Shown here one piece after another: positions 11,028-50,010 of a DNA stretch of 64,000 bases. A model generated the notes under the pieces. That model saw only the letters and a program-made list of their open reading frames with translations, was not told the origin of the DNA and ran no database searches. A program made the position numbers and the translations under genes. Each line of letters opens with the position of its first letter. Position 1 is the stretch's first letter. The stretch covers positions 372,001 to 436,000 of the forward strand of contig NZ_SMNA01000005.1 in NCBI RefSeq assembly GCF_004353825.1, written 5' to 3'. The stretch is from Occultella glacieicola. Lineage in GTDB: Bacteria > Actinomycetota > Actinomycetes > Actinomycetales > Beutenbergiaceae.

Positions 11028-11905
11028 GCCTCCCGGCGGCGCCAGTCCCTCAGGACCAGCAGGATCACCAGGGAGACCACCACGAGGAGCACGGCGAGCG
11101 CGAGCGCCGAGTCCCGGGTCACGCCCGCTCCGTTGAACGCCGTGTAGATCGCCATCGGCATCGTCTGGGTGACGCCGGGCTGGTTGCCCGCGAACAGCGC
11201 GGTCGCCCCGAACTCACCGACCGCTCGGGCGAACGCGAGCACGGTGCCCGCGATCAGTCCCGGCATGACCAGCGGCAGGGTGATCCGGCGCAGCACGGTC
11301 CAGCGCCCGGCACCGAGCGTGGCGGCCACGTACTCGTACCGGGTGCCCGCGGTGCGCAGTGCACCCTCGAGCGAGATCACCAGGAACGGCATCGCGACGA
11401 ACGTCTGGGCCATCACCACGGCCAGGGTGGTGAACGGGACCGTGATCCCGACCACGGTCAGGACCTGCCCGAGGTAGCCGTTGACGCCGAACAGGTACAG
11501 CAGGGCCATGCCGCCGACGAGCGGCGGCAGCACCAGCGGGAGGGTGACGATGATCCGGAGAACCTCCGCCAGGCGGCTCGGCGCCCGGGACAGATACAGC
11601 GCGAGCGGCACTCCGAGGACGAGGCAGCACACCATGGCCGCGAGCCCCGTGCGCAGGGACAGGCTCAGCGCGGACAGGGCAGCGGGCGACGTGATCGCCG
11701 CCGGGAACGTGGCCCAGTCGACCCGCGGGAACAGGGCCACGAGCGGCAGCAGCACCGCGACGAGTCCGAGCACCGCGGGCACCGCGAGCAGCACCGGCAG
11801 CGGGCGCGGTGCGGCGCCGCGCTCCCCGCGCGAGCGCGCGGAGGCCGGAGCGGGCGTCGGGCCGGCCGGTCCCGGCGGTCCGGCGGCGCTCGGGTCGGTG
11901 GTCAT
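11021..11905 (-). CDS. modB: Molybdate ABC transporter permease
   Basis: LPLVLPPLVGG, FARAVGEFGAT; start overlaps modA stop (ATGA). Confidence 0.9.
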   Translation of the reverse strand: MTTDPSAAGPPGPAGPTPAPASARSRGERGAAPRPLPVLLAVPAVLGLVAVLLPLVALFPRVDWATFPAAITSPAALSALSLSLRTGLAAMVCCLVLGVPLALYLSRAPSRLAEVLRIIVTLPLVLPPLVGGMALLYLFGVNGYLGQVLTVVGITVPFTTLAVVMAQTFVAMPFLVISLEGALRTAGTRYEYVAATLGAGRWTVLRRITLPLVMPGLIAGTVLAFARAVGEFGATALFAGNQPGVTQTMPMAIYTAFNGAGVTRDSALALAVLLVVVSLVILLVLRDWRRREAW

Positions 11906-41125: not shown

Positions 41126-43279
41126 TCAGGCCGGCGGCACCGGCACCGGCAGGTGCTTGGCCCACCACGCGAGGATGTGCTCGAACCGGGCGATCCGGTG
41201 TTTCGGCAGCCCCGACCGGCTCAGTTCGTGTCCCTCCCCCGGGAACAGCAGGAACTCGGTCCGCACGCCGCGCCGCTTGAGGCCGACGTACCAGCGCTGC
41301 CCCTGCTCGACCGGGCAGCGCCAGTCCTGCTCGGAGTGGATCACCAGGGTCGGGGTGCGCACCTTGTCCAGGTGCGCCATCGGGCTCTGGGCGGCGACCG
41401 CCGTCGGGTCCTCACCGAGGTAGCGCAGCCCGAAGAACCAGCCGATGTCGCTGGAGCCCTCGAAGCTCACCGGGTCGAGGAACCCGCGTTCCACGATCGC
41501 CGCCGTGAAGCGGTCCGTGCGGGTGGTCAGCCACGCCGTCAGGTAGCCGCCGTAGGAGCCACCGAGCACGCCCACCCGGTCGGCGTCGAGGGTGGGGTCG
41601 GCGGTCAGGGCGGCGTCCAGGAACGCGAGCACGTCCGCGCTGTCCCGGTCGCCGAACCCACCGGTGATGGCCCGGCCGTGCTCCTGGCCGTACCCGGAGG
41701 AGCCGCGCGGGTTGCAGAACACGACGGCGTACCCCGCCGAGGCGTACACCTGCACCTCGTCGAAGAACGTCGGGGTGTACTGCGCATGCGGGCCGCCGTG
41801 GATGAGCAGCAGCACCGGGTGCGGACCGGGGCCGGCCGGCTTGGCGACCCAGCCGTGCACGGGGTAGCCGTCGTCGCTCGTCGCCTCGAGTTCGGTGGGC
41901 TCGAGCACGCCCGCCTCGGCGCGCAGCCGGGAGGACAGGTCACTCACCCGGCGCCGCCCGTCACCGGCGACCAGCCACAGGTCGCCGACGCTGTCGACGG
42001 CGGTCGCGGCCAGCAGCACGCGGGCGCCACCGTCGCTGGTGTCGGCCCCGAGGACCTCGGTGGCGCCGTCGTGCACGGGGGTCAGGGCGCCGTCGGTCCA
42101 CCGCACGAGCTCGGTGGTGCCGCGCCGTTCCCGGGTCATCAGCACACCGCCGTCGACGGCGAGGAACACCGTGCCGCCGAGGCTTTCGGTGACCGGGTCG
42201 GTGAGGATCTCGAGGTCGGTGATCGCGGCACCGTCCCAGCGGCCGCGGTACAGGGCCGCGGAGCGACCGATGAAGTCCATGTCGTCCGGGCCGAGGTCCG
42301 CCTTGAGCAGCCAAACGGCTCCAGCATCGGCATCGGGATCGGCATCGGCATCGGCATCGGCATCGGCATCGGCATCGGCATCGGCATCGGCATCGGCATC
42401 GGCGAACAGCACCGCACCGACGTTGCCAGGGCCGACGTCGAGGACCAGCCCCGCCGAAGAGCCTGATGCGTCGTGGTGGACCAGCTCGCCGGTGAGCGCG
42501 TCCGGGACCGCGCGGAGCACGAGCAGCCCGGTGCCGTCCGGGGTCCAGACCGGGTTGCGATGGTCCTGGGCGGCCGAGGTGACCTGCACCGGGTCGACGC
42601 CCGCCGAGGCGAGCCGGCCGGGTACCGCGGACTCGTCGGTCCCGGCACCCCGGTCGTCGGGACCCTTCGCGCCGCCGCCGCCGGCGCCGTTCCCACCCGA
42701 CCCCTTCGAGTCGGCTCCGCCGCCCGCGGGCGGAAGATCCGCCGTCGGATCCGCCGCCGGCGGCACGTCGATCACGAACACGTGCTGGGGCCGGTCCGCG
42801 TAGAAGCCGATGCCGTCGTTCCGATAGGTGAACGTGGTGATGTGCCGGGGCGGTTCCGAACCCGGGCCGACCTTCTCGTCGGTGCCGTACCGGCCCGGTT
42901 CGGGCAGCCGGGCGGTGTAGGCGATGCGGCCGGAGTCCGGTGCGAACACGGGTCGTCCGCTGATCCCGGTCGGATGGTCGGTGAGCAGTCGGGGCTCACC
43001 ACCCTCGGTGGGCATGACCGCGAGCTGGGGCTTACCGCCCTCCGGGGCCCGCACGAACGCGAGCCATCGCCCGTCCGGGGAGATGACCGGCTCGGAGTCC
43101 TTGGCCCCGTGGGTGAACGGACGCAGCGCGCCGGAGGGCAGATCCTGGCGCCACAGCGCGGTCCGGTAGGAGTCGTCCTCGACGTCGGTCCGGGTCAGTG
43201 CGACCACCGCCCAGGTGCCGTCGGGGTGCAGAGCCGGGGTGCCGGGTCGGGTGTACAGGCTGAGTTGTTCTGGTCGCAT
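41126..43279 (-). CDS. S9 family peptidase (beta-propeller plus alpha/beta hydrolase)
   Basis: IHGGP, GGSYGG, DWRCP, GEGHE. Confidence 0.95.
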   Translation of the reverse strand: MRPEQLSLYTRPGTPALHPDGTWAVVALTRTDVEDDSYRTALWRQDLPSGALRPFTHGAKDSEPVISPDGRWLAFVRAPEGGKPQLAVMPTEGGEPRLLTDHPTGISGRPVFAPDSGRIAYTARLPEPGRYGTDEKVGPGSEPPRHITTFTYRNDGIGFYADRPQHVFVIDVPPAADPTADLPPAGGGADSKGSGGNGAGGGGAKGPDDRGAGTDESAVPGRLASAGVDPVQVTSAAQDHRNPVWTPDGTGLLVLRAVPDALTGELVHHDASGSSAGLVLDVGPGNVGAVLFADADADADADADADADADADADPDADAGAVWLLKADLGPDDMDFIGRSAALYRGRWDGAAITDLEILTDPVTESLGGTVFLAVDGGVLMTRERRGTTELVRWTDGALTPVHDGATEVLGADTSDGGARVLLAATAVDSVGDLWLVAGDGRRRVSDLSSRLRAEAGVLEPTELEATSDDGYPVHGWVAKPAGPGPHPVLLLIHGGPHAQYTPTFFDEVQVYASAGYAVVFCNPRGSSGYGQEHGRAITGGFGDRDSADVLAFLDAALTADPTLDADRVGVLGGSYGGYLTAWLTTRTDRFTAAIVERGFLDPVSFEGSSDIGWFFGLRYLGEDPTAVAAQSPMAHLDKVRTPTLVIHSEQDWRCPVEQGQRWYVGLKRRGVRTEFLLFPGEGHELSRSGLPKHRIARFEHILAWWAKHLPVPVPPA
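42323..42400. repeat. GGCATC hexamer microsatellite (13 units, two imperfect) encoding (Asp-Ala)n
   Basis: Direct reading; in frame in the S9 peptidase. Confidence 0.95.
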
Positions 43280-44450: not shown

Positions 44451-45170
44451 CTACTCGCAGCCGACGCCGTCGTCATCCCGGTCGAGGTGGCCGCCGTAGC
44501 CCGGCTCGCCCCGGTAGACCGGCGCCGCCCCGGCAGCGCGGGCCGCGGAGCAGTTGGCGTAATAGGTGGAGGAAGATCCGCTCGAGGAGGATCCGCTCGA
44601 GGAGCTGGACGCCGGAACCGCGGTCTCCCGGGCGCTCACCGCCGCCTCACGGCCGGCGAGTGCCGACTCCCGTGCAGTCAGGTCGACGTCCCGGGTGTCT
44701 GCGGCCGCGACCCGGGCCGTGAGATCCGCCTCCTGGGCGGTGACCGTGGTCTCCCTCTCGAGCACCGCGGCCTCCCTGCCGTCGAGGGCCTCGACCTGGG
44801 CGATCAGCGCGTCGTTCTCGGCCTGCACCTGCTCGAGTTCGGTGGCGAGGTCGTCCCGTTCGGTGGTCGCACTCTCCGCCTCGGTCCGGATCTCGTCCCG
44901 CTGCGCGAGCAGCGCTTGGTACTCGGCCGTGGCGGTCGGTGGCCTCTGGCCGACGACTCCGATGAGCAGGCCGAGCAGGAGCGCGACCACGCCCACGACG
45001 ACCGGCACCAGGATGACCCGGTTCCTCGGCTGCTCCGGCGGCGCCTGGGCGGTCCGGGCGCCCTGGTCCCACGGCGGGGCGAACTGCGCCCGCTGGTCTG
45101 CCGGAGCGCGTCGTCGACGTCGCGGGTCCTGTCGGGAGCGGGTCGGGTCAGCGGGCGGCACACTGGTCAT
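44451..45170 (-). CDS. Membrane-anchored coiled-coil protein with Excalibur Ca-binding domain
   Basis: YYANCSAARAAGAAPVYRGEPGYGGHLDRDDDGVGCE. Confidence 0.85.
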   Translation of the reverse strand: MTSVPPADPTRSRQDPRRRRRAPADQRAQFAPPWDQGARTAQAPPEQPRNRVILVPVVVGVVALLLGLLIGVVGQRPPTATAEYQALLAQRDEIRTEAESATTERDDLATELEQVQAENDALIAQVEALDGREAAVLERETTVTAQEADLTARVAAADTRDVDLTARESALAGREAAVSARETAVPASSSSSGSSSSGSSSTYYANCSAARAAGAAPVYRGEPGYGGHLDRDDDGVGCE

Positions 45171-45247
45171 GCCCGAGGTATACACCGGCGGACCTCCTCG
45201 CCGGGGGCGATTGGGAGGCCCATCACATCGGAGCCGGTGGCATTCAG

Positions 45248-45323
45248 TGGAGCCACCTGTCGGATTCGAACCGACGACCGTCCGCTTACAAGGCGGGTGC
45301 TCTACCAGCTGAGCTAAGGTGGC
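45248..45323 (-). tRNA. tRNA-Thr (anticodon TGT)
   Basis: GCCACCTTAGCTCAGCTGGTAGAGCA...CTTGTAA...GGTTCGAATCC...GGTGGCTCCA; 76 nt with encoded CCA. Confidence 0.97.
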
Positions 45324-45392
45324 GCGCCCTCGCGGGCTCCAGCCGAGTCTGCCAGAGTCCGCGCGGGCCTGACCAAACGAGTTGCGGCTCCC

Positions 45393-46184
45393 TCACGACC
45401 CGTCCGAGGCGGACTCGATCGCCCCGCGGAGCACCCCGGGCTCGGTCCAGTCCACGTCCAGCGGTTCGCCGTCGAGCAGCACCTGCGGGGTGGACCGGTT
45501 GTCGGTGTCGCGCTGCATCTGGTTCGTGGCGGCCTCGACCCATTCCGGGTACTGACCGTCGGTGAACGTGTCGATGGCGTCCTGCGGCACACCGGCACCG
45601 GCCGCGATCTCGGCGAGCTGGCTGTCCGAGAGCGACACGAGCTCCTGCTCCTGGAACGCGAACACGGCGCCGGTGAACGCCGCGAACTGCTCCGGAGCGT
45701 AGTTCGCGACCGCCGCGGCGGCCACCGCCGAGCGTTGCGAGGCGCCCCCGTTGCCGGGGTCCACGACGGCCACCGGGTGGTAGACCACGGTGAGGTCCCC
45801 GGCCTCGCGCATCTCGGTGAGGTCGGCGGCGTTGACCGCCTCGAAATCGACGCAGTGGGGGCACATGAAGTCGAGGTAGACATCCAGGACGGGGGCGCCG
45901 GAATTCTCGGTGCCCGCGACGCCGTCGGCCCCCACGCTGATCCCGCCGTGCAGGTCGGAGTTGGCCGGCCGCACCTCGACGTCCTCGAGGTAGGACTTGT
46001 TCGCGGCCTGCGCGATGAAGAACCCGGCCACCACGATCAGGGCGATCAGGGCGACGGCACCGGAGACCAGCAGGATGCGCGTGCGCCGTTCACCACGTGC
46101 GGTCTCGGCGCGGATCCGCTCCGCCTCCGCCCGGCCCCGGTCCCGGGCGGAGGCCGCTGTGCTCTTGGAGCCCTTGGCTGCCAT
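45393..46184 (-). CDS. Membrane-anchored DsbA family oxidoreductase (CPHC)
   Basis: N-terminal TM; YLDFMCPHC; STP cis-Pro loop. Confidence 0.9.
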   Translation of the reverse strand: MAAKGSKSTAASARDRGRAEAERIRAETARGERRTRILLVSGAVALIALIVVAGFFIAQAANKSYLEDVEVRPANSDLHGGISVGADGVAGTENSGAPVLDVYLDFMCPHCVDFEAVNAADLTEMREAGDLTVVYHPVAVVDPGNGGASQRSAVAAAAVANYAPEQFAAFTGAVFAFQEQELVSLSDSQLAEIAAGAGVPQDAIDTFTDGQYPEWVEAATNQMQRDTDNRSTPQVLLDGEPLDVDWTEPGVLRGAIESASDGS

Positions 46185-46192
46185 GGTGCTGG

Positions 46193-46981
46193 TCAGGCGG
46201 CGTCGGTGACGGCGGTCATGAACTCGCCCGGATTGGTCCAGTTGCCGCTCCAGTCCTGACCGTCGATGTGGATCGTCGGGGTGCCGCCCACGCCGTCACG
46301 CTGGGACTGCTCCGTGGCCACCCTGACCCACTCGGTGTAGGTGCCGGCGGCGAGGGAGTCGGCGACCTCCTGGGACACGCCCGCCTCGACGGCGATCGCG
46401 GCGATCTCATCGTCGGTCAGCCCCGGCCCACCCTCGGCGGGCTGGTTCGCGAACAGCGCCTCGGCGAACGGTAGCGCCATGGCCGGCTCGTCGGAGGCCA
46501 CGGTCGCGAACGCGTTGGCGGCGCGCGTGGAGTACATCGTCTCCGCGGAGAGGTGGTCCAGGTTCGCCAGCGGGTGGTAGGTGACGGTGGCGGTGCCGTC
46601 GCCGACCAGCGTCGCCACGTCCGCGCCGTTCACCTCCTCGAACTGGCCGCAGTAGGGGCAGAGGAAGTCGAGGTAGACGTCGACCTCCACGGCCCCCTCG
46701 TTCGGGCTGCCGGCCCCCTCGGCGCCGATCGGGATGCCGCCGTGCAGGTTCGAGCCCGCCGGCACCTCACCCTCGAAGTCGGAGAGCAGGGTCCGGCCGG
46801 CGGCCTGGAAGATGAAGAAGCCGGCGGTCGCGATCAGCGCGACCACGAGCACGACCGCGCCGATGAGGATGCCGCGGTTGCGCTTCTCGCGCTTGGCCGC
46901 CTGCTCGCGCAGGCGGGCCGCCTCGAGTCGGGCCGCCTCGCGGCGCTCCTCGCGGGTCGACTTGGGGGTGTTCGATGCCAT
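46193..46981 (-). CDS. Membrane-anchored DsbA family oxidoreductase (CPYC)
   Basis: N-terminal TM; YLDFLCPYC; GTP cis-Pro loop. Confidence 0.9.
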   Translation of the reverse strand: MASNTPKSTREERREAARLEAARLREQAAKREKRNRGILIGAVVLVVALIATAGFFIFQAAGRTLLSDFEGEVPAGSNLHGGIPIGAEGAGSPNEGAVEVDVYLDFLCPYCGQFEEVNGADVATLVGDGTATVTYHPLANLDHLSAETMYSTRAANAFATVASDEPAMALPFAEALFANQPAEGGPGLTDDEIAAIAVEAGVSQEVADSLAAGTYTEWVRVATEQSQRDGVGGTPTIHIDGQDWSGNWTNPGEFMTAVTDAA

Positions 46982-47075
46982 GAGAGATTCGTCCTTGTCC
47001 TGGGTGCGCGGCATCCGTGGCCGCTGCGGGTGCGGGTGCGGGTGAGCGTGCTGGCTGGCTGCGGGCTACGCGCGC

Positions 47076-47573
47076 CTAGGCCGGCACCGGCGGACCACGG
47101 CGCAGCACCTGCCGCGAGGGACGGTCGGCGACCACGGCACGCGCGAGCCAGTCGACGAACACCCGCCCGACGGCGGGGGTAGCCTCGGGCAGGTCGGGTC
47201 GCCGTGGGCGCAGCAGGTCGTTGAGCCCGTCGCGGACGGCGGCGACGGCCCGGCCGAGCCAGTGCCCGACGGCGACCGCGGCCAGGTTCGCGAGCACGGC
47301 GGTGGCCGCGAGCGCGGCGAACAGCCCGAGCAGGGTGGCGGTATGCGGACCGAACCCGAGGGACCCGGTGGGGCAGTCCGCGACCTCGCGCATCTGCGCC
47401 AGGTTCTGGGCGACGAACCCGATCAGGCCGGTGCCGCGCACACACTCGGTCGAGAGCAGCAGCGCGGTGAAGGCGGCGGTCAGCACCGGCCAGGCGACCA
47501 GCGTGATCGCGAGCAGGGCAGGAGACGTCGGTCGCACGAGTGCGCGCACACGCCTGCTCCGGTCACCGATCAC
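47076..47573 (-). CDS. Two-TM hypothetical protein ending in RGPP (candidate arrest leader)
   Basis: TATCCT-N6-GTG leaderless-type start; TM-loop(C-x22-C)-TM; ends LRRGPPVPA. Confidence 0.65.
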   Translation of the reverse strand: MIGDRSRRVRALVRPTSPALLAITLVAWPVLTAAFTALLLSTECVRGTGLIGFVAQNLAQMREVADCPTGSLGFGPHTATLLGLFAALAATAVLANLAAVAVGHWLGRAVAAVRDGLNDLLRPRRPDLPEATPAVGRVFVDWLARAVVADRPSRQVLRRGPPVPA

Positions 47574-47606
47574 CCACCAAGGATACGGTCTTGCCCGGCC
47601 CGGGCC

Positions 47607-47746
47607 GAGAGTGCGGAAGTGGCGACCACCACAGCACCCTCGGCGTCGGGCCGCCATTGAAGCCGAGACCGGGTCCGGTCTACCCTCACACCCGCGCCGC
47701 CGCTGAGCGCCGAGCGTGCCGTGGTGGTCGCCACTTCAGCACCCTC
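47607..47746. repeat. Inverted pair of REP-like elements, copies 3 and 4
   Basis: 47607-47645 matches the reverse complement of 47708-47746 at 35 of 39 positions. Confidence 0.8.
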
Positions 47747-47763
47747 ACGGCCGGCGGGACGGG

Positions 47764-50010
47764 TCAGAAGCCGGGGATCGGAGGCTGGCCGAAGGGCGCC
47801 CAGTCCGCGACCAGCCCGCCGACGAGCAGCAGGAGCGCGGCCGTCGCGGCGACGCCGAGCGCGATCGCCACCCAGGCCCAGGCGCCGCGCACCCCGGGGG
47901 CGAGGACGGCGAACACCGAGCGGGCGCCCTCGCGTGCATGCCCGCTGGACGGTGTCCACCACAACAGCAGCGTCGCCACCACCACGACGGCGGGCACCAC
48001 GAGATCCAGCGGCACCGTCGGTGAGGCGAGGCCCCACACGATGCCCCCGCCGAGCACGGCGACGATCAGCCCGGGCAGTGTCAGGAGCGCCGACAGGATC
48101 AGGTGCCACGGGGAGGCGAGGCTGGCCGAGAGCAGGTCCCATCGGCCGGGCCCGCGTCGGATCCGTCGACCACGCACGGCCCGGGCCGCGGAGCCCACGG
48201 TGCCCAGCAGCAGGAACCCGGCGAGGAACACGAGTAGTGTCCAGGCCGGCCAGAGCGCCCCGAGCGCGACCACGGCGAGCCACCAGGCGCCGGTGATGCC
48301 GGGCCGGGGCCGCGCGGGGATCGCCCATGCGGGCCACTGGCCGCGGGCCTCGCCCGGGCCCATGCCGGGCGGCGGTCCGTCCGTGGTCGGCACCCAGGCC
48401 GGGTCCGACGGCGCCGGCGGGCCGGGCAGGCCCGTCGCCGGCGGCTGGTACTGCAGTGGTGCGGGCTGCTGCGCTGCCGTACCCAGCGGCGCACCGTGCG
48501 GCTGCTGGTGTGGTTCCGGCTGGAACTGGCGCACCGGGGCCGCCTGCGTGGGTGGGTACTGCTCACGCAACGCGAGCGGCATCACCGCGGTGGCCGGGCG
48601 GTCGCCGGGCTGCGGATCGCGTGGCCCCGGCGCCCGCCGCGGATCGGTACCGGGCTCGGCCCCGGAGCCCGCCGACGGCGGGTACGTCGCGGGCTCACCG
48701 GCCGACGGCGCGTAGGTCGCGGGCTGACCGGCGGACGGCGCGTGCGCCGGAGGCTGCCCGCCCGACGGCGCATACGTCGCGGGCTCCCCGCCCGACGGCG
48801 CATACGTCGCGGGCTCCCCGCCCGACGGCGCAAACGTCGCGGGCTCCCCGCCTGACGGCGCGTACGTCGGCGGCCGACCGGACGACGGGTCGGCCGCTCC
48901 GGCCCGGGCGGCCGGCGGCGGGTAGGACGGCGCGTGACCCGGGGCGGCTGCCGCCGCGATCCCTGCGGCGCCGACAGCGCCGCCCGCCCCGGCGGCCAGC
49001 GTCCGGGCGGCGGAGCCGCCGCCGTCGTACTCTCCGGCACCGTCGTCATACCCGGCGGCACCGTCGTACCCGGCAGCACCCTTGTCGCGCCGGCCGTCGT
49101 ACCCACCGCCGGCACCGCCGCCGTCGTACCCGCCAGCACTCCCGCCGTCGTCCTCCTCCGCGTCGACCTCCCACTCCCCCGGCGCCAGCACCGAGGTGAC
49201 CTCCCGGCCCTCGGCATGGTCGGTCAACGCGCGCAGCACCGTGTCGGTGCCCATCCGCCGGTCCGGGTCGGGATGCAGGGCCCGTCGCAGCACCTGGGCG
49301 ACCCGGGGGTGCAGGCCGGAGACGTCCGCACGACCCGCCTCGACCCGCAGCAGCACCCCGGGGCCACGGCCGAACGGGGGCCGCCCGGTGGCCGCCCAGA
49401 CCAGCACGGCGGACCAGCCCCACCAGTCCCCGCCGGCGCCCGGGTCGCCGCCTCGCATCACCTCGGGGTCCACATAGCCGGGGGTGCCGGTGACCATGCC
49501 GGTCTGGGTGAGCCGGGTGTCGTCGGCGAGCTGGGAGATCCCGAAGTCGATGACCACGGGGCCGTCGTCGGTGAGCATCACGTTGGCCGGCTTGAGGTCA
49601 CGGTGCACGACGCCGGCGGCGTGGATCGAGTCCAGCGCCTGGGCGAGCCCGTGCGCGAGCTCGGCGAGCTCCTCGGCGGCCATGGGCCCGTGCTCGACGA
49701 TCGAGTCCTCGAGCGACTGGCCGTCGATCAGCTCGGTGACGATGAACGCCTCGTCGGAGTCCGCCTCCGCGTCCAGCACCCGGGCCACGTGCTCGCCGCG
49801 AACCCGGTGCAGCGTCGCGACCTCCCGGCGCAGCCGCTCCCGGGCCGCCTCGTCCGCGCTGAACGCCGGGTGCAGCAGCTTCACGGCGACGAGCCGGTCC
49901 TCGGCGTCGAGGGCCTTGTACACCGTGCCCATGCCCCCGGAACCCAGGCGCGCGAGCAGCCGGTATCCACCCACCTCTCGCAGCGGGGTCGAGGCCGGGC
50001 GCTCGTCCAT
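47764..50010 (-). CDS. Hanks-type Ser/Thr protein kinase with C-terminal TMs
   Basis: LGSGGMGTVY, VAVK, HRDLKPAN, DFG, GTPGY. Confidence 0.95.
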   Translation of the reverse strand: MDERPASTPLREVGGYRLLARLGSGGMGTVYKALDAEDRLVAVKLLHPAFSADEAARERLRREVATLHRVRGEHVARVLDAEADSDEAFIVTELIDGQSLEDSIVEHGPMAAEELAELAHGLAQALDSIHAAGVVHRDLKPANVMLTDDGPVVIDFGISQLADDTRLTQTGMVTGTPGYVDPEVMRGGDPGAGGDWWGWSAVLVWAATGRPPFGRGPGVLLRVEAGRADVSGLHPRVAQVLRRALHPDPDRRMGTDTVLRALTDHAEGREVTSVLAPGEWEVDAEEDDGGSAGGYDGGGAGGGYDGRRDKGAAGYDGAAGYDDGAGEYDGGGSAARTLAAGAGGAVGAAGIAAAAAPGHAPSYPPPAARAGAADPSSGRPPTYAPSGGEPATFAPSGGEPATYAPSGGEPATYAPSGGQPPAHAPSAGQPATYAPSAGEPATYPPSAGSGAEPGTDPRRAPGPRDPQPGDRPATAVMPLALREQYPPTQAAPVRQFQPEPHQQPHGAPLGTAAQQPAPLQYQPPATGLPGPPAPSDPAWVPTTDGPPPGMGPGEARGQWPAWAIPARPRPGITGAWWLAVVALGALWPAWTLLVFLAGFLLLGTVGSAARAVRGRRIRRGPGRWDLLSASLASPWHLILSALLTLPGLIVAVLGGGIVWGLASPTVPLDLVVPAVVVVATLLLWWTPSSGHAREGARSVFAVLAPGVRGAWAWVAIALGVAATAALLLLVGGLVADWAPFGQPPIPGF
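48671..48880. repeat. 30-bp degenerate tandem repeat x7 (about PATYAPSGGE) in the kinase linker
   Basis: Units start every 30 nt from 48671 to 48851. Confidence 0.85.

Follow-up and report, generated by a model that had tools for sequence, protein, structure and literature searches.

A short membrane protein gene, read on the minus strand just ahead of two dsbA genes, forms the subject of this analysis of a 64,000-nucleotide window of the Occultella glacieicola genome (contig NZ_SMNA01000005.1, positions 372,001 to 436,000 of assembly GCF_004353825.1), to which all coordinates refer (Table 1). The gene starts with GTG and its 165-residue product ends in VLRRGPPVPA, which places an RGPP motif, of the kind known from ribosome-arrest peptides, three residues before the stop codon. 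Both dsbA products match the Pfam families Thioredoxin_4 and DSBA and are 44% identical to one another; the first also matches solved structures of actinobacterial thiol-disulfide oxidoreductases (4K6X at E=1e-16, and the MdbA entries 6BO0, 4Z7X and 5C00). An original prediction, made from the letters of the DNA alone, had described an open reading frame (ORF) with two transmembrane (TM) helices, a C-x22-C pair and an RGPP end ahead of two dsbA genes, and every one of these elements was recovered, with a gap of 94 nucleotides between the leader stop codon and dsbA1. The gene is very likely an RGPP arrest leader tied to actinobacterial dsbA operons. Sensing of oxidative protein folding is the best guess for its role, by which the cell could probably tune its disulfide-forming enzymes to need.

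Table 1. Features of the leader-dsbA locus and its neighbours, in window coordinates
Feature	Position	Strand	Basis
Ser/Thr protein kinase gene, C-terminal membrane helices	47764..50010	-	Pfam Pkinase, E=1.6e-40
Predicted -10 hexamer TATCCT, 6 nucleotides before GTG	47580..47585	-	TANNNT spacing conserved across loci
Candidate RGPP arrest-type leader gene, 165 residues, 2 TM	47076..47573	-	ORF, without Pfam/NCBIfam family
TM1 / signal anchor, residues 18-41	47451..47522	-	hydropathy, AlphaFold2 helix
Predicted exported loop, Cys44-x22-Cys67	47373..47444	-	Cys invariance (145 aligned), charge profile
TM2, then basic amphipathic helix, residues 76-121	47211..47348	-	hydropathy, AlphaFold2 model
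RGPP codons (R159-G-P-P), predicted stall site	47088..47099	-	R159, P161, P162 invariant
Spacer, 94 nucleotides, C-rich (C 0.46, G 0.28)	46982..47075	-	
GCGGCC box in spacer, can pair with RGPP codons	47024-47019	-	
Shine-Dalgarno sequence AAGGA of dsbA1	46996-46992	-	inside spacer
dsbA1, 262 residues, CPYC, membrane-anchored MdbA-type thiol-disulfide oxidoreductase	46193..46981	-	Pfam and structure matches
dsbA2, paralog, 263 residues, CPHC, 8 nucleotides after dsbA1	45393..46184	-	Pfam
tRNA-Thr(UGU)	45248..45323	-	ARAGORN

The leader ORF is more than a chance reading frame, because its coding score is positive (+38 to +45 with our own crude hexamer gene caller) and because RGPP is depleted in the proteome, with 4 occurrences against 39 expected in 4699 called proteins, three of the four being C-terminal. 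RAPP is similarly scarce in the same proteins (5 against 57), and the control motifs AGPP (60 against 73) and AAPP (116 against 106) lie close to expectation. Two hydrophobic helices are evident from hydropathy, and the AlphaFold2 model agrees (helices at residues 18-41 and 76-121; mean predicted local distance difference test score 77). The positive-inside rule, together with a ribosome-bound C-terminus, would place the loop with Cys44 (codon 47444-47442) and Cys67 (codon 47375-47373) outside the cell. Database searches place the protein in no named group: Pfam and NCBIfam matched no family, Foldseek with the leader model found no solved fold at E<=0.001, and the ESM Atlas yielded, at 0.95, actinobacterial clusters without names and no others; below 0.9 it gave DUF6412 and DUF6153 as leads. 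A single-sequence homolog search recovered the leader itself and only one other protein, a hypothetical protein of Occultella kanbiaonis that is its closest named relative (81%); an alignment-based word search gave 7 matches and added little.

A family emerges once the leader is sought through its genomic neighbourhood. The seed comprised 30 dsbA loci from 41 genomes (that of the window and 40 relatives), and 16 of these loci carry an upstream RGPP/RAPP ORF with two Cys; a regular-expression match for such an ORF at locus L018 was rejected as spurious. The profile built from the 16 seed leaders matches 176 clusters at 50% identity, and the motif and Cys-pair counts that follow cover the best 150 of these cluster proteins, picked with the full profile. 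The motif stands no more than 15 residues from the end in 145 of the 150 (RGPP in 130, RAPP in 15), the other five having the look of truncated or frameshifted records, and the Cys pair is present in 147 (C-x22-C in 101, C-x21-C in 23). The motif count is not simply circular, because 141 of the 150, among them 136 with the motif, still score at E<1e-3 against a profile stripped of its RGPP columns. Only five columns, C44, C67, R159, P161 and P162, are invariant among 145 aligned sequences, which comprise the window protein, 6 locus proteins and the 138 of the 150 left once fragments and oddities were dropped. Outside the Cys and RGPP the sequence is poorly conserved, with a mean column identity of 22%. 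Spacing is held much more tightly on one side of the Cys pair than on the other: 95.0±3.1 residues separate the second Cys from the Arg, vs 41.6±11.2 from the start to the first Cys (n=139). The expectation that RGPP, the Cys pair and their spacing would recur in homologs was thus upheld. Counted from the Arg, the hydropathy profile places TM1 at about -148 to -128 and TM2 at -82 to -58, with a basic helix and then a linker rich in Pro after TM2; some members have four TM segments. With a larger profile, matches at E<=1e-5 occur in 66 of 401 genomes of the order, in a few via the C-terminal half only. Class-wide matches outside the order (401 genomes) cover essentially only the stretch from the last TM to RGPP; they belong to other leader families (YcnI, CopC, PCuAC, SCO1, ECF sigma and PepSY) and were not counted.

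The leader stays with the disulfide pathway even where the gene order is rearranged. Among 64 family loci the next gene is dsbA in 41, and the order is mauE>dsbA in 16, copC>mauE>dsbA in 3 and vkor>dsbA in 1, for a total of 61 that lead into a dsbA operon; of the 3 without an assigned dsbA link, two lie at contig ends and one is a second copy (L139). The search through dsbA had supplied sixteen of the 64, and among the 48 loci found independently of it (outside the first profile) 45 lead into dsbA. None of the 64 has a sec or yidC gene next. The pair of dsbA genes seen in the window, which the original prediction treated as part of the arrangement, proved incidental: two copies appeared in only 5 of 38 direct-dsbA loci within the stretch fetched. 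Because the family keeps to dsbA, mauE-dsbA and vkor-dsbA operons, the disulfide pathway is favoured over copper or plain membrane insertion as the object of sensing. The L139 copy, in genome G123, has an intact Cys pair and RGPP, and the ORF next to it is unrelated and, by eye, phosphotransferase-like.

Two other signals compete with disulfide formation at this point. The leader might monitor membrane insertion or export through the pull of Sec or YidC, as MifM, VemP and ApdA do, with the disulfide being structural and dsbA serving as a secretion-stress response. The distance from the membrane helices to the motif is fixed in all members, the His of the last TM is found 64-73 residues ahead of the Arg in leaders linked to dsbA, to YcnI/CopC and to sigma genes, and RAPP-type peptides were first described as localisation monitors (PMC12992588). 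That reading is nonetheless unlikely: besides RGPP, it is the two Cys and not the TM residues that are invariant, in 61 of the 64 loci the next genes lead into dsbA, and TM2 would already be about 58 residues from the peptidyl transferase center (PTC) at the stall. In the other account copper would be the ligand of the Cys pair, on the pattern of CruR and CutF, and dsbA would count as a copper-stress gene. Sister leaders do stand ahead of YcnI (DUF1775), CopC, PCuAC and SCO1 genes, the three copC>mauE>dsbA loci belong to the family itself, and His is common both near Cys1 (75 of 150) and in TM2 (94 of 150). The window's protein has neither His, however, lacks a CxxC and has its Cys 22 residues apart; 58 of the 61 dsbA-linked loci have no copC match downstream (the probes were copC, mauE, vkor and dsbA only), and one locus leads into vkor. 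Copper sensing is accordingly rated a shade lower still, as decidedly unlikely.

The sister leaders are worth describing in their own right. These RGPP leaders with 4 TM precede genes for YcnI (DUF1775), CopC, PCuAC, SCO1, PepSY-TM, ECF sigma factors and DsbA (L084, L090, L092, L094, L096, L098, L100, L102 and L107; further loci are L085-L089, L093, L095, L097, L103, L108 and L110). At L093 a leader without the Cys pair stands ahead of a dsbA, and 8 of 12 in a mixed YcnI/CopC-type sister set look leaderless at the mRNA level. A second RGPP leader occurs in the O. glacieicola genome itself (G000:C11:337866-338498; L154:467-1099), upstream of a copC-like gene; it has 4 TM, a His-rich loop with two Cys and a TANNNT hexamer 6 nucleotides before its start. 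A MauE/DoxX-family membrane gene with a CGCF motif lies directly before dsbA in many lineages (Pfam MauE for four), following the leader or copC at L066, L067, L070, L072, L073, L082, L136 and L140-L151, and also at L024, L026-L028 and L030. VKOR takes this position at L074. No VKOR was found in 3 of 5 genomes with a MauE-type gene before dsbA, and MauE matches were weak or absent in 5 genomes with the direct leader-dsbA order. In this small sample, the MauE/DoxX-type protein may be an alternative re-oxidant of MdbA.

The start of the leader carries a signature of its own. In 43 of 46 orthologous loci, and in 14 of 15 loci of a second set, an in-frame start has a TANNNT hexamer 6-7 nucleotides upstream; the same spacing is met at 0.06% of 89,522 internal ATG/GTG/TTG codons and at 10.6% of called gene starts. 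Such conservation suggests that the leader is translated from a leaderless mRNA made from its own promoter, and it favours the start at 47573; the predicted promoter in the window is the TATCCT hexamer. The hexamer gene caller itself preferred GTG 47549 over GTG 47573. A longer start at ATG 47657 (193 residues) was rejected, its coding score being lower and its position upstream of the -10 box. A scan of 45100-48000 for sigma-70 promoters and intrinsic terminators gave no match, at a setting too strict for actinobacterial promoters, and the TANNNT-spacing test was used in its place for the promoter search. Only 2 of 45 loci have a TANNNT hexamer in the stretch from the Arg codon region to the next start. 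Its lack in the other 43 agrees with the original prediction, under which dsbA would have no separate promoter.

Relatives that lack the leader gene complete this picture. In eight of them (L007, L009, L011, L018, L020, L022, L023 and L025) the kinase gene lies directly before dsbA, and all eight have a TANNNT box in the kinase-dsbA gap, in some cases overlapping the kinase stop codon. The leader appears to lie between a promoter and dsbA, and some lineages seem able to dispense with it. As a side observation, dsbA in these relatives is preceded by a 5' untranslated region with a Shine-Dalgarno sequence, which makes them natural controls without a leader. The promoter-like box ahead of dsbA in all eight, and the presence of the leader in no more than the 66 of 401 genomes of the order, would also suit the view that dsbA is not regulated at all and that the leader is a small membrane protein, for instance a substrate or helper of DsbA, whose RGPP slows only its own synthesis; the sections of PMC12992588 on Streptomyces lividans leaders likewise demonstrate downstream control for none of them. 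This view is most improbable of all those considered. The tetrapeptide is about 10-fold depleted in the proteome yet invariant in the leader, the leader is the first gene of its operon, and its sequence varies widely outside the Cys and RGPP. Control of dsbA by the leader in cis is, on this evidence, likely.

How a stall might be passed on to dsbA has been examined chiefly through the spacer RNA. Complementarity of 47090-47109 with 47003-47024, which the original prediction had noted by eye, does exist and belongs to the minimum free energy (MFE) fold of 47130-46960, but this fold is no better than those of shuffled sequences (z=0.46; 137 of 200 shuffles fold as well) and the helix shows no covariation. 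In 12 close relatives the helix is absent from the RNAalifold consensus, and its covariation (0.006, with a single compensatory cell) falls under the shuffled mean of 0.016. Counted directly in the same relatives, it is 82.7% paired vs 24-60% for slid controls, and the GCGGCC box, which is non-coding and lies just 5' of the Shine-Dalgarno sequence, is nearly invariant. The fit between RGPP codons and distal spacer is also a little better for the cognate spacer than for others (residual -0.74 kcal/mol, p=0.048 by permutation). These are the observations that speak for a disulfide sensor with translational unmasking of the SecM or CutF kind, in which the stalled ribosome would open the helix between RGPP codons and spacer near the dsbA ribosome-binding site (RBS); CutF, as its preprint presents it in the part concerned, is the precedent (10.1101/2025.02.05.636593).

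The expected consequence of unmasking is not seen in simulation. A simulated stalled ribosome changes the energy of RBS opening by a median of 0.02 kcal/mol (n=45) vs 0.0 in controls (p=0.73), the controls being 200 of 708 control gene pairs, with L074 excluded (no start assigned) and three starts set by hand. Wider windows, with L056 dropped and 110 controls, give median changes of 0.00 and 0.23 kcal/mol (n=44; p=0.90 and 0.56), and the O. glacieicola locus itself varies over the three window sizes (+0.9, -2.5 and 0.0 kcal/mol). Moreover, opening the dsbA RBS already costs less than in controls (6.3 vs 9.2 kcal/mol), and the helix ends 6 nucleotides before AAGGA and leaves the Shine-Dalgarno sequence uncovered. 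Neither covariation nor predicted RBS access supports the SecM-like, RBS-sequestering helix that had been proposed as the output, and unmasking at the RBS is an unlikely route.

Base composition of the spacer points elsewhere. In all 45 loci the spacer has more C than G, vs 67.5% of 708 control gaps (median C-G 0.22 vs 0.06), and the same holds for 14 of 15 new loci and for 22 of the 23 leaders from sister families; unpaired C number 15-17 per spacer vs 9.7 in controls. A mild C>G bias is also present in the leader ORF at -135 to -75 nucleotides; taken singly, loci are within the control range. The skew weakly favours Rho control of the type described for CruR over RBS unmasking, and the O. 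glacieicola genome encodes rho, along with two VKOR genes. A further output would be mRNA stability, with the stalled ribosome or a hairpin at the stop codon blocking 5'-3' decay or endonucleolytic cleavage of the dsbA RNA. Stalled ribosomes stabilise mRNA in Bacillus, and such an output is compatible with short spacers. It also finds some support in co-adaptation across the stop codon: the codons before the stop pair with the first 20 nucleotides of the spacer with a cognate residual of -1.42 kcal/mol (0 of 5000 permutations), controls ranging from -0.36 to +0.25. The share of loci with a hairpin across the stop is, however, much like that of controls (0.78 vs 0.75), and in the duplex test the window's own locus takes a poor rank (0.98); this output is very unlikely.

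Taken as a whole, the model that we favour is a feedback sensor of oxidative protein folding that works by programmed ribosome arrest, with a probability of roughly 0.4. A promoter just upstream would, to judge from its conservation, yield a leaderless mRNA that covers the leader, dsbA1 and dsbA2. By analogy with known arrest peptides, a ribosome stall at RGPP is very probable. From the computed geometry, TM2 at the stall would end about 58-60 residues from the PTC, with both helices in the membrane; the predicted topology puts the Cys44/Cys67 loop outside, within reach of MdbA/DsbA, and the basic amphipathic helix at the tunnel exit. With the loop outside and the helices clear of the ribosome, DsbA could act on the nascent chain. 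Formation of the loop disulfide would then change the pull on the chain and free the stall; that disulfide formation is the signal, and that it acts with this assumed sign, is slightly favoured. While stalled, the ribosome would shield the C-rich, weakly structured RNA of the stop codon and spacer from Rho, and dsbA would be transcribed; once the stall is released Rho would terminate, as for CruR. This Rho-type output is preferred to RBS unmasking and seems the single most likely route. The net effect would be more DsbA when disulfide formation is poor. The closed loop in full, in which the nascent leader is a dedicated reporter substrate of MdbA/DsbA and the disulfide pulls through TM2 and the amphipathic helix to bring on Rho ahead of dsbA, is a more tentative proposal, and doubtful as a complete account.

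Several observations weigh against this model. The C>G skew is modest, in that its family median is equalled or exceeded by 12.9% of control gaps and the window's value by 16%; all controls are from a single genome, and related loci do not count as independent. A hairpin over the stop codon accounts, through its 3' arm, for part of the C-richness of the spacer. Many spacers measure only 34-62 nucleotides and are short for Rho loading, which needs about 70-80 nucleotides. The L139 copy has no dsbA behind it, and the copC-linked L154 leader also has two loop Cys, so the Cys pair is not specific to dsbA. Finally, the sign of regulation is not readable from the motif, and known leaders go either way.

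If the closed loop is true, a redox state beyond the membrane would be coupled to transcription through a feedback loop built on a modular actinobacterial leader scaffold, one that swaps its sensor loop (Cys for oxidative folding, His/Met for copper) and can do without its first two helices. Oxidases of the MdbA type have a central and often essential role in actinobacteria, and the regulation of their levels is called an open question in the passages on MdbA of PMC9974433. The family offers a minimal test case: 165 residues, two helices, two invariant Cys, a fixed spacing and a predictable leaderless start, with relatives that lack the leader and keep a promoter-like box before dsbA as natural controls.

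The concept is already in print, which limits the surprise. The original prediction knew of no description of this arrangement for DsbA; the relevant portions of Fujiwara et al. (EMBO J 2025; PMC12992588) do describe RAPP/RGPP upstream ORFs (uORFs) enriched ahead of DsbA/thioredoxin-domain genes and show arrest for a leader with a Cys pair, and the accompanying review response suggests that such peptides may sense 'oxidative folding capacity'. The general design of an RGPP leader before a DsbA gene is thus published for Streptomyces, and the window's family may already be in the gene list of that paper. Control of the downstream gene by RGPP leaders, and the trigger for their release, are questions that its text leaves open in the parts that bear on this. 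New here are the definition of the family, its 2-TM form, the predicted leaderless promoter and the tracking of the disulfide pathway, together with evidence against an RBS switch and, weakly, for Rho. The open-licence literature (subscription journals were outside the search) yielded no dsbA shown to be regulated by such a leader, and no leaderless start or Rho output for one.

The remaining features of the window can be treated briefly. The kinase gene is a conserved upstream neighbour, present in most leader-family loci examined, and is predicted to fall outside the leader's transcript; it also keeps its place upstream of the dsbA locus across many families of the order and contains short tandem Pro/Ala/Thr-rich repeats. 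The tRNA-Thr gene downstream is probably not part of the leader-dsbA system. Elsewhere in the window, a peptidase-like ORF, so named by eye, has a long (Asp-Ala)n low-complexity run (41126-43279, minus strand), and ARAGORN reports a tRNA-Ala(CGC) of 100 nucleotides (11790-11889, plus strand) that is unusually long and possibly spurious.

Among characterised systems, SecM, ApdA and ApdP share the arrest core, with a localisation signal on its N-terminal side. Their targets are sec/yidC genes and the pull of the translocon frees them, whereas the window's family goes with disulfide-pathway genes and an invariant Cys pair. CutF of Rhodobacter capsulatus resembles the leader in that, as summarised in its preprint (10.1101/2025.02.05.636593), an exported nascent chain senses an extracytoplasmic signal and a C-terminal proline-rich sequence stalls the ribosome; there copper induces the stall and an RBS stem-loop is melted, while no such switch was detected by prediction at the window's leader. 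CruR of Bordetella pertussis (Bp2923, DUF2946/PF11162) comes closer in its output, for the passages on its mechanism state that ligand frees the stall and that Rho then terminates (PMC9426467), as is proposed for the window's leader. It too is a uORF, its Cys sensor keeps a conserved distance from a RAPP-type motif that ends three residues short of the stop, and it has a C>G region. It differs in having a CxxC 45 residues from RAPP, a signal peptide, a rut site inside the ORF and a role in copper sensing ahead of a TonB-dependent transporter. No match to PF11162/DUF2946 was found in the window protein, which lacks a CxxC, or in 145 family members. The two DsbA of the window are of the same membrane-anchored type as MdbA and related actinobacterial DsbA (4K6X, 6BO0, 4Z7X and 5C00), and the literature passages on MdbA (PMC9974433) mention no leader control of mdbA.

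The nearest counterpart is SLIV_27375, one of the seven S. lividans RAPP/RGPP leaders for which the experimental sections of PMC12992588 show arrest; the reporter values for SLIV_27375 are 2.8 units for the wild type vs 22.1 for the Arg mutant. Those sections add that the RAPP/RGPP motif by itself is not sufficient for arrest and that reporters in Bacillus subtilis detected no downstream expression. By our own inference the latter result fits the Rho model, because RNA polymerase in B. subtilis outruns the ribosomes, and Rho there terminates C/U-rich RNA (both from the relevant passages of PMC13323073); control by Rho rather than by an RBS switch could explain the absent signal. The window's leader belongs by its features to the uORF class of Fujiwara et al., having fewer than 300 residues, a C-terminal motif, TM segments and a co-directional dsbA operon. 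With SLIV_27375 it shares a membrane leader, a conserved Cys pair in the loop that precedes the last TM, a C-terminal RGPP-type motif, a position upstream of a thioredoxin-fold/DsbA gene and the same proposed role. SLIV_27375 has 4 TM and Cys88/Cys109, against 2 TM in the window's leader, and the distance from the second Cys to the Arg is 110-117 residues with C-x20-C in its type, vs 92-95 with C-x22-C for the window's leader. Proteins like it, recognised by these features and not by its sequence (4 TM; Cys87/108 or 88/109; C-x20-C), precede one dsbA in 5 of 5 Streptomyces genomes; the other 16 Thioredoxin_4 loci of these genomes have no such leader, one short match being spurious. Among 120 homologs listed for this Streptomyces family, all have C-x20-C and RGPP. 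In hhalign the Cys loops alone of the two families give 0.2-3%, which is not significant, against a Streptomyces profile of low diversity; the longer comparison gives 70% with the Cys in register, and the 4-TM members of the window's family reach 91% against the Streptomyces family with both Cys in register. Those 4-TM members align better still with YcnI/CopC-type leaders (98%), and at 99% with the window's family, with whose profile they were recruited. The window's leader family appears, on these sequence comparisons, to be a separate and shortened 2-TM subfamily of the superfamily that includes SLIV_27375.

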